From an uncultured Actinomycetes bacterium (GTDB taxonomy: Bacteria > Actinomycetota > Thermoleophilia > UBA2241): a stretch of 64,000 nt of DNA. The stretch covers positions 1 to 64,000 of the forward strand of contig CAVYCN010000011.1 in assembly GCA_963767005.1 (NCBI GenBank). Reading direction: 5' to 3'. Made by a program: the position numbers and the translations under genes. Under the pieces are notes generated by a model, which was not told the origin of the DNA, searched no databases, and saw only the letters and a list, made by a program, of their open reading frames with translations. This document shows, one piece after another, positions 33,479 through 61,987 of this stretch (positions are counted from its first letter, which is position 1; each line of letters opens with the position of its first letter).

Positions 33479-35206
33479 TCAGCTCCAGTGGTGCCCGGAG
33501 CCCGAGTGTCGCGAGCGACCGCCGTGCCGGCCGCCGCCGCCCTCGTGACCACCGTTCCCGCCGCCGTGACCACCGTTCCCGCCGCCCCAGTGATGGCCGA
33601 TCGACGGACCCGAGCGACCGCCGGCCTGGCCGTGCGACCAGCCCCCACGCGACTGCCGCGACGCGTGCCGGCCGCCCTCGTGAGACCTGGCGTGCCGGCG
33701 CGCGGCCGATGACCCGGCGGGCTCGCCGCCGTTGCGGCCGCGGTGGCGGTCGCCGTGGCGTGAGCCGCTCGACTCGTGACTCCGTGACCAGCTCTTGTGA
33801 GTGGGGCCGATCCGGTGAGCGAGCAGGGCCACCGGCGTGGTGGACCAGCTCCACAGCGACTCGCCGCCGGCGTGACGGCCGCCGCCCGAGCCATGACCGC
33901 CCAGCGCCGAGCCGCCCGCGCCGCCGCCCGACGCGCCGCCGCCGGAGCCGCTCGACGAGCCGTTCGATGCTGACGCGCCGCCCGAGGCCGACGTGCCGCC
34001 GGGATCCGCCGTGGACGAGCTCGTCCTGACCAGGCTCACGGTGCGCACGACGGCGACGGCCGGTCCGCTCGAGGTGCCCGCGCCGCTCGTTGCCGCGGTC
34101 TGTGAGCCGGTGCCCTGGGAGCGGGACGTGCTCGCCGCGGGACGGCGCGAGGAGGCCGGAGTGGGGACCTGAGCGGTCGGCGAGTGCGACGCCGCCGCCG
34201 ACGGTGCCGGTGGTGTGGCCGGCCGCAGATCGAGCTGTGAGACGTAGGCCGCCATGCCGGCGACGGCCACGAGGCAGGCCGCCGCGACGGTGTAGGCAGC
34301 GGCCCTGCTCGCCAGGGCGCGGCCGACCCTGGTCATGACGAGCGTCACGGCGGCAAGCGCCCCGCCCGTGGCGAGCGCCGAGCGCGCGCCCGGGGCCGCC
34401 TCGCGTCGTGGGGCGGCGACCGGTACGAACACCGGCGGTACCCGCAGAGCGGCAGGCAACGGGGCTGGAGCCGCCACGAGGGCGAGGCCGAAAGGCCCGG
34501 CCGGCCACGAGCGGGTGACTTTGCGGCAGACCCTGCAGTACGAGGCGTGCTCGTGGAGCCTGCGATCCTCGTCGCCGTCGCCCGCGGGGCGGCCGACGCC
34601 GCCGGCGGCGACCTGCTCGGCGAGCCGGCAGGCCGCCGGTCGCTCGGGCTCGGTCGCTTCGAAGGCCGCGAGGAACGCCTCGCGCGCCTTGAACAGGAGC
34701 GCCCTGGCGGCATCGACCGACAGGCCGAACACCTGGGCGAGCGCCTGGGGACGAAGACCGTGGATGTCGTGCAGCAGGAGAGCGACCGCGAGAGGCTCGT
34801 CGACCGTACGCAGCGCCTGCCCGAACCGGCGGCCGAGATCGGTGTCGTCGCTCAGGGCGAGCGCGCCGGCGGGCAGCGCCTCGCCTCGCGAGCCGGCGGG
34901 CGCCGCGTGCTCGCGGCAGGCGGCGAGGGCGGCGCGGTAGAGCCGCGCCTCGAGGTCGACGGCGCCGTCGTCGAGCAGGATCTGCCGGTAGGCGACGACG
35001 AAGGTCTCGTTCACGACGGCGGCGGCCTCGTCGGCGGGCACCAGGCAGCGTACCAGGCCGAACACCGAGAGCCGGTGGGTTTCGAAGAAGCGGATGAACG
35101 CGTCGCGTTCGCCGGAACGCAGAAGGGTCACGAAGGCGTCGGGGGGCTGGCCGGCGTTGCCGCCGGGCAGATCGCGTTCGCCGGGGGGTTCGAACGGTCT
35201 AGCCAT
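33479..35206 (-). CDS. ECF-type sigma factor fused to a zinc-finger (ZAS-like) domain, TM helix and low-complexity tail
   Basis: Region-2-like AFIRFFETHR...VVNETFVVAY, region-4-like LLLHDIHGL..QALAQVFGLS...LLFKAR, then HASYCRVC, a hydrophobic helix and a Ser/Gly/His-rich tail. Confidence 0.72.
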   Translation of the reverse strand: MARPFEPPGERDLPGGNAGQPPDAFVTLLRSGERDAFIRFFETHRLSVFGLVRCLVPADEAAAVVNETFVVAYRQILLDDGAVDLEARLYRAALAACREHAAPAGSRGEALPAGALALSDDTDLGRRFGQALRTVDEPLAVALLLHDIHGLRPQALAQVFGLSVDAARALLFKAREAFLAAFEATEPERPAACRLAEQVAAGGVGRPAGDGDEDRRLHEHASYCRVCRKVTRSWPAGPFGLALVAAPAPLPAALRVPPVFVPVAAPRREAAPGARSALATGGALAAVTLVMTRVGRALASRAAAYTVAAACLVAVAGMAAYVSQLDLRPATPPAPSAAASHSPTAQVPTPASSRRPAASTSRSQGTGSQTAATSGAGTSSGPAVAVVRTVSLVRTSSSTADPGGTSASGGASASNGSSSGSGGGASGGGAGGSALGGHGSGGGRHAGGESLWSWSTTPVALLAHRIGPTHKSWSRSHESSGSRHGDRHRGRNGGEPAGSSAARRHARSHEGGRHASRQSRGGWSHGQAGGRSGPSIGHHWGGGNGGHGGGNGGHEGGGGRHGGRSRHSGSGHHWS

Positions 35207-35476: not shown

Positions 35477-36013
35477 ATGGGTGCGGACCTGAAGGAATGG
35501 TGCGAGCGCGCGGTGGCGATGGGCGCCGGCGCCGCCACGGAGACGGCGACGAGCAGGGTCGTGGTCGCCGAATGGGTGCGACTGAAGTGCCTGTACGGCT
35601 GCGACGAGCCCGGTGTCCACCGTACCTGCCCGCCCCACGCACCGCCGCTCGATCAGACGCGCCGCCTGCTCGGCGAGTTCACGCGCTCCCTCCTGCTCGA
35701 GACCGACCCGATCACCGGCTACGAGCGCAGCGACGACGAGTCACGCCACCTCAACACGGTCGGGCTGGCGCTCGAGCGCGAGCTGTTCCTGGCCGGCTTC
35801 TACCGCGCCTGGTTCATGGGCGCCGGGCCCTGCGACCTCTGCCGTGCCTGCGTGCGCGGCGACGAGTGCCCGACACCCGAGCGGGCGCGCCCTTCGATGG
35901 AGGGCTGCGGCCTCGACGTGTACGCCACGGCGCGTGCCGCCGGCCGCCGGATCGAGGTGGTACGCAGTCACGACGACGTCTATCGTTTCTTCGCACTCGT
36001 GCTGGTCGACTGA
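35477..36013 (+). CDS. DUF2284-like Cys-rich metal-binding protein
   Basis: KCLYGC...TCPP, AGPCDLCRAC...C, ARPSMEGCGLDV. Confidence 0.85.
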   Translation: MGADLKEWCERAVAMGAGAATETATSRVVVAEWVRLKCLYGCDEPGVHRTCPPHAPPLDQTRRLLGEFTRSLLLETDPITGYERSDDESRHLNTVGLALERELFLAGFYRAWFMGAGPCDLCRACVRGDECPTPERARPSMEGCGLDVYATARAAGRRIEVVRSHDDVYRFFALVLVD

Positions 36014-36031
36014 CGCAGCCCGCACTGCGCC

Positions 36032-36060
36032 TTGACAGCCGTCGTGGCCCTGCCAATACT
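36032..36060 (+). promoter_or_regulatory. Housekeeping promoter giving a leaderless transcript
   Basis: TTGACA-N17-AATACT, followed by ATG 6 nt later. Confidence 0.65.
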
Positions 36061-36066
36061 GCGCCC

Positions 36067-36177
36067 ATGGAGGACCGACGCAGACTGCTGGCCGAAGGCA
36101 CGCTCGTGAAGAGTTGGGTCGACTCGCTCTACACCGTCACCGTGCCGCCCAGACGCCCGCCGCGCCGGCGCCTCTAG
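36067..36177 (+). CDS. Putative 36-aa leader peptide (uORF)
   Basis: MEDRRRLLAEGTLVKSWVDSLYTVTVPPRRPPRRRL*, placed at the predicted transcription start. Confidence 0.55.
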   Translation: MEDRRRLLAEGTLVKSWVDSLYTVTVPPRRPPRRRL

Positions 36178-36284
36178 CCGCGTCGATCCCTCCCGCGCCC
36201 GCTTTCACCGACACGGCGCGGGCTACTCGCGCGTTCCTCGAGCGTCATCCACGCGCTGACCGCCGTGCACATGAAGGGGGAGCC

Positions 36285-38105
36285 ATGAGCCACCGCGTTC
36301 GCCGTATCTCACGCCGCCTGCCGCTCCTGCTGGCCGGCGTCCTTCTGGTCGGGCTCGCGCTCGCCGGTCCGGGTGCGGCGCAAAGTCCGAGCCCGACAGC
36401 CGGACAGACCGCGCTCAAGGTCGGCTGGGACATCGAGCCCGACAACCTGAACCCGTTCGCCGGCATCCAGCAGTCGTCGTATGAGATCTACCACCTGGAG
36501 TACGACTTCCTGACCAACTACGGTGCCGCCCACCTCGAGACCGAGCCGGGGCTCGCCACGAGCTGGACCCACTCGGCGAACGGCCTGGTGTGGACGTTCA
36601 AGATCAGGAGCGGCGTGAAGTGGCAGGACGGCGTGCCGCTCACCGCCCACGACGTCGCCTTCACCTATACGTTCATCATGAAGTACAAGCTGCAGGCGTT
36701 CCTGTCGGCGCTGTCCGGCATCAAGACGGCGACGGCGCTTAACGACACCACCGTCGTCATCACCTGCTCGCGACCCAAGGCCGACATCCTGGCCATGTGG
36801 GTGCCGATCCTGCCGCAGCACATCTGGGGCAGGTTGCACAGCTACGAGCAGGCCTTCAACTTCGCCAACAAGCCGCCGATCGTGGGCTCGGGTCCCTTCC
36901 AGGTGGTCCAGTGGGTCCACGGCCAGTACATCCGCTGCGTGGCCAACAAGAGCTACTGGGGCGGGGCTCCCAAGGTCGACCAGCTCTACTTCAACCTCTA
37001 CACCGACCCCACGACCATGGCGAGCGATCTGCGCAGCGGCGCCATCCAGCTCGCCATCGACCTGCCGCCGGCGCAGGTCAAGGGGCTGCAGTCCGTATCC
37101 GGCATCTCGGCCCAGGCCTGCGCACAGAAGGCCTTCGACTACCTGGGGTTCAACTGCTACACCGGTCCATCGGGCGGCAACCCGGTGCTGCGCGACTGGA
37201 AGTTCCGCAACGCGCTCAACTGGGCGGTCGACAAGCAGAAGCTCGTCGACCTCGCCTACAACGACTACGCGACGCCGGGCTCGACGCTCTTCGAGCCGAA
37301 CTTCTACGACCCGAAGCTCGACTGGCACTGGACCCCGCCGGCCAGCGAGGCCTACTCGTTCGACCTGCAGAAGGCGAGCGCCATGCTCACAGCGGCGGGC
37401 TACCCGCTCGTCAACGGCGTGCGCCTGAACAAGCAGGGCAAGCCGATCGTGCTGCGCCTCTGGGCGCGCACCGACTCCGACCCGAGCCAGGTGGCAGGCA
37501 AGCTCATCACGCAGTGGTTCCGCGATCTCGGCCTGAAGATCCAGTACTCGGTGCAGAGCGAGGCGACGCTCACCAACGCCGCCTGGAACTACGTCGGCAA
37601 GGTCTACAAGCCCGACTACGACATGTACCTCTGGTTCTGGCAGCCGAGCGGTTCAGACCCGGCGCGGCGAGTCGGCTACTTCACCACGGACCAGATCCAG
37701 GGCAACAACGACGCCTGCTGGTCCGACGCGCAGTACGACAAGCTGTTCCAGGAGCAGTCGACCACGCTCGACCAGCAACAGCGCAAGCAGATCGTCTGGC
37801 AGATGGAGCGGATCTTCTACGAGCAGACGCCGTATATCGTGCTCGACTATCCCAAGCTGCTCGAGGGCTGGGACGTCGGCACGTGGACCGGCTGGGAGCG
37901 TATCCCGACACCCGACGGCGCCGTCGCCTACATCAGCGACAACGTCGACAACTACCGCCTGGTCGGTCCTAAGCCGGTGACAGCCACAAGCTCGGGCACG
38001 TCGGCCGCGAGCGTCGCGGGCATCGTGATCGTCGTGGTCGCCGTCGTGGCGGTGATCGTGGTCGTGCTCCTGCGCCGGCGGCGCAAGGGCGCGGTCGAGG
38101 TCTGA
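36285..38105 (+). CDS. Peptide/nickel ABC substrate-binding protein (family 5) with C-terminal TM anchor
   Basis: Signal peptide; PGLATSW...WTFKIRSGVKWQDG.PLTAHDVAFT, VGSGPF; C-terminal hydrophobic helix then RRRRK. Confidence 0.93.
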   Translation: MSHRVRRISRRLPLLLAGVLLVGLALAGPGAAQSPSPTAGQTALKVGWDIEPDNLNPFAGIQQSSYEIYHLEYDFLTNYGAAHLETEPGLATSWTHSANGLVWTFKIRSGVKWQDGVPLTAHDVAFTYTFIMKYKLQAFLSALSGIKTATALNDTTVVITCSRPKADILAMWVPILPQHIWGRLHSYEQAFNFANKPPIVGSGPFQVVQWVHGQYIRCVANKSYWGGAPKVDQLYFNLYTDPTTMASDLRSGAIQLAIDLPPAQVKGLQSVSGISAQACAQKAFDYLGFNCYTGPSGGNPVLRDWKFRNALNWAVDKQKLVDLAYNDYATPGSTLFEPNFYDPKLDWHWTPPASEAYSFDLQKASAMLTAAGYPLVNGVRLNKQGKPIVLRLWARTDSDPSQVAGKLITQWFRDLGLKIQYSVQSEATLTNAAWNYVGKVYKPDYDMYLWFWQPSGSDPARRVGYFTTDQIQGNNDACWSDAQYDKLFQEQSTTLDQQQRKQIVWQMERIFYEQTPYIVLDYPKLLEGWDVGTWTGWERIPTPDGAVAYISDNVDNYRLVGPKPVTATSSGTSAASVAGIVIVVVAVVAVIVVVLLRRRRKGAVEV

Positions 38106-38109
38106 GGAG

Positions 38110-39039
38110 GTGGCGGCACAGTACCCGCCGGTCCTCGTCGAGGTATGGCGCGGACCGGCGGTCGAGAGCCTGCACACGCTCGTGGCGAGCCTGGTCGACG
38201 AGGCCGGCCGCGAGGTCGCCCGCTACGGCGACCCCGGCTTCGTGACCTACTGGCGTTCGTCTGCCAAACCGTTCCAGGCGCGCCCCTGGGTCGACGACGG
38301 CACCATCGACCACTTCGGCTGGGGCGACCGTGAGACGGCCATCATCTGCGCGTCGCACGTGGGAGCCGACGAGCACGCGCAGCTCGTACGCCGCATGCTC
38401 GCCGACATCGCTTGCAGCGAGGCCGACCTGCGCTGCGACCACGAGCTCAAGGCACGTCACAACTGCTCGGGCAACCACACCGGCATGCTCGCGGCCTGCG
38501 TGCACCACGGCTGGGAGCTCGCTACCTACCAGCGGCCCGACCACCCCGCACAGCGAGCCGGCGTAGCGGCGGTCTCGGAGGCCTGCGGGCTACCGCCCGA
38601 CGAGATCCCGCGCGGCATCGACGGCTGCGGCATCGTGGTGTGCGCCACGCCGGTCGTCGCCGCCGCGCGCGCCTACGCCACCCTGCCGGGGCTGGCTCCA
38701 CGCATCGCCCGCGCCATGATGGACAACCCGGTCCTGATCGAGGGCGAGGGCGAGCTCGACACGGTGGTCATGCAGTCCTTCCCCGGCGCCGTCTCCAAGG
38801 CCGGCGCCGAGGGCCTGGGCTGTGTAGCGCTGCCCGGCGGAGGCGGCCTCGCGGTGAAGGCGCTCGACGGCGGCGACCGCGCCGTCGGGCCGGCGATGAT
38901 CGCCCTGCTCGTGCGACACCTCGGCCTCGACGGCGTGCCGGCCGGGGCCGAGTCGCAGGCCCGCCCGCCGGTCAGAAACGACGCCGGCGACGTCGTCGGC
39001 GAGCTTGCGGCCCGCCTCCCGGCCGGCCGCGAGGGTTAG
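38110..39039 (+). CDS. Asparaginase II (Rhizobium AnsA-type) family protein
   Basis: RSSAKPFQA, CASH, HNCSGNHTG, IDGCG, SKAGAEG, KALDG. Confidence 0.9.
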   Translation: MAAQYPPVLVEVWRGPAVESLHTLVASLVDEAGREVARYGDPGFVTYWRSSAKPFQARPWVDDGTIDHFGWGDRETAIICASHVGADEHAQLVRRMLADIACSEADLRCDHELKARHNCSGNHTGMLAACVHHGWELATYQRPDHPAQRAGVAAVSEACGLPPDEIPRGIDGCGIVVCATPVVAAARAYATLPGLAPRIARAMMDNPVLIEGEGELDTVVMQSFPGAVSKAGAEGLGCVALPGGGGLAVKALDGGDRAVGPAMIALLVRHLGLDGVPAGAESQARPPVRNDAGDVVGELAARLPAGREG

Positions 39040-39043
39040 CGCC

Positions 39044-39445
39044 GTGAGCGTCGAGAAGATCAACCCACCCGACCTCCACCGGCCAGTCGGCAACATGTAC
39101 GCCCATGTTGTGCGCGCCACGGGGAGGGTCAGCTACCGCATCGGCGGCCAGGTGCCGGTCGACGGGGAAGGCCGCAACCTGTTCCTCGGCGACATGGCGG
39201 CACAGCTGCGTTCCTGCTACGAGCAGGTCACCACCGCCCTGTCTGCCGTGAGACTCGGCTGGCAGGACGTCGTCCACATCTACACCTTCACGACGGACAT
39301 GGACGAGTACGTCCGCGTCGAACCGCCGATCGCGAAGGCGTTCTTCGGCGAGACGCCGCCCGCCTCGACGCTGGTCGAGGTACGTCGCCTGGTCGATCCG
39401 GACTGGCTCGTCGAGGTGCAGGTCGACGCGGTCGCCGATGCCTGA
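39044..39445 (+). CDS. RidA/YjgF family protein
   Basis: YAHVV...IGGQV, PPASTLVEV..L..PDWLVEV. Confidence 0.9.
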   Translation: MSVEKINPPDLHRPVGNMYAHVVRATGRVSYRIGGQVPVDGEGRNLFLGDMAAQLRSCYEQVTTALSAVRLGWQDVVHIYTFTTDMDEYVRVEPPIAKAFFGETPPASTLVEVRRLVDPDWLVEVQVDAVADA

Positions 39446-39457
39446 ACGGCGCCCTCA

Positions 39458-39501
39458 GGCGAAGCGCGGGGAGGCTGGTACCAGCCTCCCCGCGCTTCGC
39501 C
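39458..39501. repeat. Perfect 44-bp loopless palindrome (terminator-like hairpin)
   Basis: GGCGAAGCGCGGGGAGGCTGGT|ACCAGCCTCCCCGCGCTTCGCC. Confidence 0.85.
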
Positions 39502-61910: not shown

Positions 61911-61987
61911 GTGTGACTCCGTCGCACGCCTGGTCCGCCGATCGACTTCGGCGTCGTCGCTCAGGCTTGTGTGACTTCGTCGCACGC

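Follow-up and report, generated by a model that had tools for sequence, protein, structure and literature searches.

The leader locus and its operon

The window, a stretch of 64,000 nucleotides from the genome of an uncultured Actinomycetes bacterium (G000, GC content 71%), carries a short upstream open reading frame (uORF) ahead of genes for a family-5 solute-binding protein (SBP), an asparaginase II homologue and a Rid-family protein (Table 1). A DUF2284 gene lies upstream of this leader. The elements that a first-pass annotation had described here, namely TTGACA-N17-AATACT, a 6-nt gap between the -10 box and the ATG, a 36-codon frame and a 107-nt spacer with two hairpin arms (CCCGCGCC at 36192-99 and GGCGCGGG at 36215-22), are all present in the sequence. 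Among the sequencing runs listed as carrying the leader, none was of RNA. Between positions 34500 and 37000, the leader promoter was the only promoter-like site (10/12 matches; shuffle mean 0.2). Among other DNA runs, one contig spans 36064-36266 without any difference from the window, and two further contigs join the end of the uORF to the start of the SBP gene; because contigs from these runs carry the leader with 0-2 differences, the stop of the uORF is unlikely to be an assembly error.

Table 1. Features of the leader and the operon (window coordinates; G004 is a second genome of the same genus)
Feature	Position	Strand	Remarks
-35 box TTGACA, sigma-70/SigA-type	36032..36037	+	identical in G004
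-10 box AATACT	36055..36060	+	6 nt to ATG; leaderless geometry, predicted TSS 36067
Leaderless uORF, candidate arrest/leader peptide	36067..36177	+	36 codons, TAG at 36175-77
Conserved core, codons 8-32	36088..36162	+	invariant G11, L13, V14, K15, V18, D19, T25, V26, P27, P28, P31
TVPPRRPP, predicted stall segment	36139..36162	+	R29 has a rare AGR codon in G000 and G004
Non-coding C-rich spacer, 107 nt	36178..36284	+	candidate rut site; 8-bp hairpin 36192-36222; SD GAAGGGGGAG 36273-82
Family-5 solute-binding protein (SBP)	36285..38105	+	PF00496 SBP_bac_5, E 4e-78
Class-3 (Rhizobium-type) asparaginase II homologue	38110..39039	+	PF06089 Asparaginase_II; PDB 8cly alignment
Rid (YjgF/RidA) family protein	39044..39445	+	PF01042 Ribonuc_L-PSP; start read from sequence
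Perfect 44-nt palindrome	39458..39501	.	likely closes the SBP-asparaginase II-Rid operon

Across the order, the same leaderless geometry was matched 16 times in 13 of 89 genomes, with 9 of the 16 matches opening ORFs of at least 100 aa, and a reversed control gave no match. Other short ORFs adjacent to promoters of this geometry occur at L229 (G024:C9:51546) and on C2 and C18 of G000, with lengths of 25, 11, 14 and 33 codons.

Pfam confirmed the identity given earlier to the three downstream genes, and the Rid protein scores under the NCBIfam cut-offs. As read from its sequence, the SBP has a signal-like segment at its N-terminus and a hydrophobic anchor at its C-terminus, and no ABC permease genes are adjacent to it. 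Its subfamily is expanded: G000 has 8 paralogues besides the window copy, and single genomes of the family contain as many as 14 matches at E<=1e-150. No similar uORF was found upstream of the 8 closest SBP paralogues in G000, and the six-frame translation of this genome contained no paralogue of the peptide, which is single-copy.

The asparaginase II homologue reads NCSGNH where the class-3 enzymes of Rhizobium read NCSGKH, Asn replacing a zinc-ligand Lys, and the same replacement was found in 6/6 homologues of the genus. In ReAV, the K138A substitution sharply slowed asparagine hydrolysis, according to the available part of PMC11024299. The metal site or the substrate of the window's protein may differ from that of the class-3 enzymes; asparagine is not assured as its substrate, since the zinc ligand is replaced in all six of these homologues and the K138A change impairs hydrolysis. 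In G004 the operon goes on with dimethylargininase-like and N-carbamoylputrescine-amidase-like genes, both scoring under curated cut-offs.

Conservation of the peptide

Protein searches returned nine database proteins of this family; repeating the search with a broader profile brought no more. The alignment of nine sequences used here comprises the window peptide and eight database proteins, P0002 being left out because it is 94% identical to the window peptide, and the nine stand for about four independent lineages. Total lengths range from 36 to 75 aa, and no insertion or deletion occurs from M1 to P32. Mean pairwise identity is 0.44 over residues 2-7, 0.76 over residues 8-32 and 0.22 over residues 33-36, and 12 positions are invariant. 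TVPP is kept in 9/9 sequences and RRPP in 8/9 (R29, R30 and P32 each 8/9). The exception, P0003, has KTPA after its TVPP and extends to 75 aa, as though its stop had been lost and the frame coupled to the following gene. Read past its TAG, the window frame runs for 73 codons to a TGA that overlaps the SBP ATG (36067-36288); G004 has no such frame. The calls of P0012 and P0016 begin at upstream starts, and RLD...NT-x-x-M occurs in these in-frame extensions at the same spacing, which would be the promoter pattern in translated form. In P0012, a cyclase-like N-terminal fragment (likeness by eye, no Pfam match) stands in frame with the translated promoter and uORF; this fusion suggests deletion of the cyclase gene, which in G004 lies upstream. 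P0017, in the P0015 cluster, proved to be an unrelated TPR-CHAT protein and was dropped.

A search of 89 genomes of the order detected the peptide in two: besides the window's own, the sole homologue is that of G004 (62% identity, E 5e-9). There the leader precedes orthologous SBP, asparaginase II and Rid genes, and the gene upstream differs from that in G000. The -35 and -10 boxes and the 17- and 6-nt spacings are identical in the two genomes, with the 17 nt of the promoter spacer themselves diverged. Over codons 8-32, pS is 0.54 and pN 0.24, and third positions account for 13 of the 24 differences (p=0.028), a bias not seen in codons 1-7. A contig from peat (run X9, 36058-36367; identity to the window about 90%) also joins the uORF to the SBP gene. 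Three of the four differences listed in its uORF (those at the contig end being unlisted) are synonymous and one is a replacement; its spacer has 10 substitutions and 3 deleted bases, and one stem pair is broken. The same SBP follows the uORF in 3/3 readable contexts (G000, G004 and the peat contig).

The check named in the first-pass annotation, conservation of the uORF before orthologous SBP genes with a synonymous bias, thus gave a positive result in both G004 and the peat contig, and the proposal of a leaderless, translated uORF ahead of the operon gains support from this conservation and from the kept promoter geometry. Judged from these comparisons, the uORF is a genuine small gene, translated and under peptide-level selection before the SBP-asparaginase II-Rid operon, and leaderless as far as promoter geometry indicates. 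The conservation of the peptide is the reason for this assignment; its Arg/Pro composition and its RRPP are not.

The same conservation largely refutes the reading of the uORF as the 5' part left over from a longer leaderless gene in decay, or as a neutral ORF behind a promoter that merely drives the SBP gene, which we consider very improbable. Its patchy occurrence, its absence from the closest relative (G011) and its faster divergence than the SBP gene (pN 0.24-0.35 in the uORF vs 0.12 in the SBP, G000 vs G004) would suit such a reading, but the synonymous bias and the frame kept intact across lineages argue against it. A HMMER search of 1.84 billion representatives of any length also speaks against a longer parent gene: its best three matches were short family members, and the other six were long or repetitive, with 4-7 partial stretches or none (P0007 alone inspected). 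Weak leads from ESM Atlas (0.89) pointed to the N-terminal domains of Nudix proteins; neither similarity to the three Nudix proteins of G000 nor a six-frame paralogue accompanied them, and a Nudix origin is unsupported.

The peptide could also act in trans, as a small protein encoded by the first cistron of the operon that binds, for example, the Rid protein, the asparaginase homologue or the ribosome. The invariant residues, among them those of the hydrophobic LVKxYVD stretch, are compatible with such a role, and a Rid gene lies 3' of the asparaginase gene in both uORF-bearing genomes and was not found at the other five loci fetched. However, the tail past P32 varies freely in both sequence and length, in contrast to the constant distance from M1, AlphaFold gave no confident fold (pTM 0.33), and no family or PDB match was obtained, which makes a trans-acting protein unlikely. 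Conservation from about residue 7 to Pro32, at a fixed distance from Met1 and with free tails, is the pattern expected of a peptide that acts in the ribosome exit tunnel.

No match to the peptide was found in Pfam, NCBIfam, PHROGs or PDB, and Rfam covariance models gave no match in the window at the gathering score (two chance-level matches, E 3.5 and 5), consistent with the earlier remark that no named leader peptide could be recognised. Literature searches on leader peptides, RRPP stalling and leaderless Thermoleophilia genes, supplements being outside their scope, led to known arrest peptides and to no description of this one. We regard the family as one of real small genes, narrow in distribution and, it appears, not described before, and as a good candidate for an arrest peptide.

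Amino acid composition and codon usage

The first-pass annotation had taken the Arg richness of the uORF as a signal. Its count of eight Arg codons, with AGA twice and CGA once, is correct, and AGA makes up 0.7% of Arg codons in G000 (1,868 crudely called genes). The richness itself does not hold as a signal: only R29 and R30 of the eight Arg residues are conserved across the family, leaving six that are not, and among 13,248 stop-free stretches of 36 codons drawn at random from G000, 18% contain at least 8 Arg and at least 4 Pro (RxPP in 5%). The Arg/Pro richness of the uORF is therefore ordinary for a 71% GC genome and within chance. Trp and Asn, which had been considered as sensed codons, are excluded because W17 is Tyr or Phe in 8/9 aligned sequences and Asn is encoded in none of the nine.

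At the level of the G000 proteome (the same crude set of 1,868 genes), RRPP is enriched 2.2x (28 observed vs 12.8 expected), and RAPP (4 vs 21.6, 0.19x) and RGPP (5 vs 14.5, 0.35x) are both depleted. The depletion of RAPP and RGPP in the bulk ORFs of G000 agrees with what the available part of PMC12992588 reports. Pro-Pro pairs are not avoided (0.99x).

These numbers bear on a codon-supply attenuator, in which ribosomes would pause at PP-RR-PP when charging of tRNA-Pro or tRNA-Arg, or EF-P, is limiting, with no ligand pocket involved. MgtL and the mycobacterial polycysteine leaderless sORFs offer precedents. The conserved PP-RR-PP places four Pro and two Arg codons in six positions, R29 is encoded by AGA in G000 and AGG in G004, which make up 0.7% and 3.6% of the Arg codons of G000, and EF-P is present in 3/3 genomes tested. 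The phylum also has known leaderless sORF attenuators, as the available part of 10.1101/834739 describes. Nevertheless, codon supply leaves the protein-level conservation of residues 8-26 unexplained, the Pro codons are of common type in G000 and mostly of rare type in G004, the proteome carries Pro-Pro at its expected frequency, and no SD-sequestering switch is predicted. We therefore regard a codon-supply attenuator as quite unlikely.

Distribution and history of the leader

A tree of 12 SBP orthologues places G000 beside G011 (100/99), with the uORF-bearing copy of G004 joining next (92/96). G011 keeps the order DUF2284-SBP-asparaginase, with no Rid gene found alongside, and lacks the leader; its gap contains a dispersed repeat where G000 has the promoter and uORF. 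The simplest reading, we infer, is that the leader was ancestral to G000, G011 and G004 and was lost in G011. The uORF is absent before five SBP orthologues of the genus, those of G011, G006, G007 and G009 and the second copy of G004, and the leaders of the latter four are unrelated to that of the window.

The dispersed intergenic repeat is about 55-58 bp long and gave 96 blastn hits on 14 of the 19 G000 contigs, often in tandem, with locations at 61933-61983 of the window, L072:8757-8864 and L009:1613-1786. G002 has three tandem copies after DUF2284. In genus g10 (L027-L048), several loci upstream of the SBP orthologue carry a TTGC..N..TAGCCT-like promoter and GC-rich inverted repeats; the short leader that they share is oriented divergently from the upstream gene they have in common, and a conserved RNA element or operator is a possibility here.

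A blastn search of 40 relatives with 35900-36400 matched the end of DUF2284 and missed the G004 leader. In a metagenome scan, 2 loci of 150 candidates belonged to the family, both near-identical to the G004 locus. A pattern scan of the genome collection yielded at least 122 stretches, and L114, which equals the P0001 peptide, was the sole homologue among the matches listed; the pattern would miss the P0011 subgroup, and the scan says nothing on absence. None of 61 candidates from viral contigs was homologous. Setting aside 17 weaker matches (E 0.001-0.01), 401 genomes of the class gave no further true match, the best other one, in G272, spanning the stop of a long gene. No homologue was found in 400 other genomes of the phylum, nor in two other orders (0/61 and 0/301 genomes, scanned without a positive control). 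Inspection of 13 loci traced the recurrent weak matches of the order search mostly to one antisense stretch that they share, within a conserved gene. The leader family is narrow and known so far only from uncultured organisms.

The spacer and its possible read-out

The spacer contains 42 C against 25 G in G000, a skew of 0.25 that is reached by 1.8% of 716 upstream regions of this genome. For G004 the skew is 0.19, a marginal value reached by 5.6% of the same G000 background. A Rho gene is present in G000. Rho-dependent attenuation is our preferred guess for the read-out, although a weakly supported one, because the spacer is C-rich, Rho is present and an SD switch is not predicted.

The structure of the spacer is not conserved. 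Its 8-bp hairpin is not shared with G004 (z -2.5 in G000, +0.6 in G004), and G004 has a terminator-like hairpin that is absent in G000. The stems noted earlier are there as far as the arms go, but a role for them as a ribosome-binding-site switch is not supported. Opening the SD costs 5.5-7.4 kcal/mol in G000 vs 9.6-10.0 in shuffled spacers, so that it is no more occluded than in shuffles. A stalled ribosome would change this cost by 1.9 kcal/mol in G000 (reached by 7/60 shuffles) and by 0.3 in G004 (22/60), and with no stall effect in G004 the SD-masking model gained no support.

An alternative in which a structured RNA leader, such as a riboswitch or sRNA, is the conserved item and the ORF is incidental could draw on the GC-rich spacer hairpins and on the terminator-like element in G004. 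It is scarcely credible, since the leader belongs to no Rfam family and as a whole folds worse than shuffles (z +1.29), changes gather at the third positions of codons, and conservation is lowest in the spacer.

A conditional arrest peptide as the proposed explanation

The interpretation that we favour, at slightly better than even confidence, is that the 36-codon gene encodes a cis-acting ribosome-arrest leader that turns on the SBP-asparaginase II-Rid operon in response to a nitrogenous metabolite. It builds directly on the promoter geometry, the peptide-level conservation and the place before the same SBP. Transcription would begin at the A of the uORF ATG. The capacity of the ribosome exit tunnel is the basis for assigning the P site to Pro31 and the A site to Pro32, in which case residues of about 7-31 would fill the tunnel, and the conservation profile is consistent with a stall near the Pro-Pro pairs. 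The stalled ribosome might then keep Rho off the C-rich ORF end and the adjoining first part of the spacer, and such shielding would let transcription proceed into the uptake and amidohydrolase genes.

The arrest would be conditional, depending on a ligand together with the upstream residues. A stall intrinsic to RRPP is unlikely, because Arg is not among the arrest-keeping middle residues and RRPP is enriched in G000; a conditional arrest of the TnaC/SpeFL kind is the better fit. For the ligand we can offer a guess, an arginine-, agmatine- or amide-type compound, with a guanidino or amide compound as the lead, because dimethylargininase-like and N-carbamoylputrescine-amidase-like genes follow in G004. 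Several observations count against the arrest model, among them the KTPA of P0003 and its length, the small number of independent lineages, the five SBP orthologues without the uORF, the spacer structure that is not conserved, the marginal C-skew of G004, and the divergence of the uORF, which outpaces that of the SBP.

A more specific version holds that the family is a new class of metabolite-sensing nascent-chain arrest peptides, leaderless, with a beta-hairpin-like LVKxYVD sensor, a TVPPRRPP effector, a stall in mid-ORF and a guanidino or amide ligand. We put this forward tentatively, as possible and on balance doubtful. If true, SpeFL and TnaC would have a counterpart in Actinobacteria whose stall motif and ligand are both new, and there would be a pointer to the substrate of the divergent class-3 asparaginase. 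To our knowledge, only a handful of metabolite-sensing arrest peptides have been described, mostly from proteobacteria. The peptide presented here is a compact candidate in which natural variation marks the important residues, and its inducer, once found, would identify the substrate both of an orphan family-5 SBP and of the asparaginase II homologue, whose zinc site is altered.

Comparison with known systems

RAPP/RGPP arrest peptides were the family with which the first-pass annotation had associated the uORF. In the available text of PMC12992588 (section 7), their core is R-[A/G; partly S/D/P/E/V]-P-[P/G], and Arg is not listed among the residues that keep arrest in ApdA/ApdP. Like the members covered there (ApdA, ApdP, CruR and a set from S. 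lividans), the window peptide has an R-x-P-P near its C-terminus, a predicted stall at the third and fourth residues of the motif and the setting of a small uORF in Actinomycetota. Unlike them, it has Arg at x, it is 36 aa long as opposed to 100-200, its motif is enriched in the proteome and not depleted, and it has no signal or transmembrane segment, with no long hydrophobic run in the nine sequences by inspection. The RAPP-like reading was therefore abandoned: RRPP (8/9) and KTPA (1/9) do not correspond to the arrest-keeping core, and neither the enrichment nor the missing membrane segment accords with it.

MgtL, the Pro-codon-rich leader of mgtA, is subject to Rho-linked control. The window peptide resembles it in its Pro codons and in the control proposed here, and differs in its greater length, its conserved non-Pro core and its downstream operon. 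The polycysteine attenuators, represented by Ms5788A (available part of 10.1101/834739), share with the window peptide a short first cistron, predicted to be leaderless here, in Actinomycetota; they sense codon supply through a run of Cys and unmask a ribosome-binding site, whereas here the whole peptide is conserved and an RBS duplex is unsupported.

TnaC arrests at a Pro-stop site, which the window peptide does not have. It also differs from TnaC in lacking a conserved Trp, and no sequence similarity was detected. The likeness to TnaC, as far as the available part of PMC11890864 goes, lies in the model proposed here, in which a ligand induces arrest ahead of genes for a catabolic enzyme and for uptake and Rho-dependent attenuation takes place in the spacer.

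SpeFL is a 34-aa ornithine-sensing arrest peptide encoded before speF, according to the available part of 10.1101/604074. As described there, it is of similar length to the window peptide, its uORF precedes an operon for metabolism or transport of amino acid derivatives, it has a tandem Arg pair with a rare codon, and its Rho/rut read-out matches the one proposed here. The two differ in that the HIRRXXH sensor motif of SpeFL is absent here, the Arg pair lies at 29-30 by the predicted stall vs 12-13 in SpeFL, SpeFL arrests at termination whereas here conservation stops 4-43 codons before the stop, and the window uORF is actinobacterial and predicted to be leaderless. No sequence motif of TnaC or SpeFL occurs in the nine aligned sequences, HIRRXXH being absent and Trp not conserved. 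By sequence, the peptide belongs to none of SpeFL, TnaC and the polycysteine attenuators, and it does not pass the tests of the RAPP family. What it shares with TnaC and SpeFL is the arrangement, in all three contexts that could be read, of a short uORF with a conserved peptide directly before a metabolic and transport operon. Most plausibly, and by analogy, it works like SpeFL and TnaC within the leaderless architecture of the mycobacterial polycysteine attenuators.
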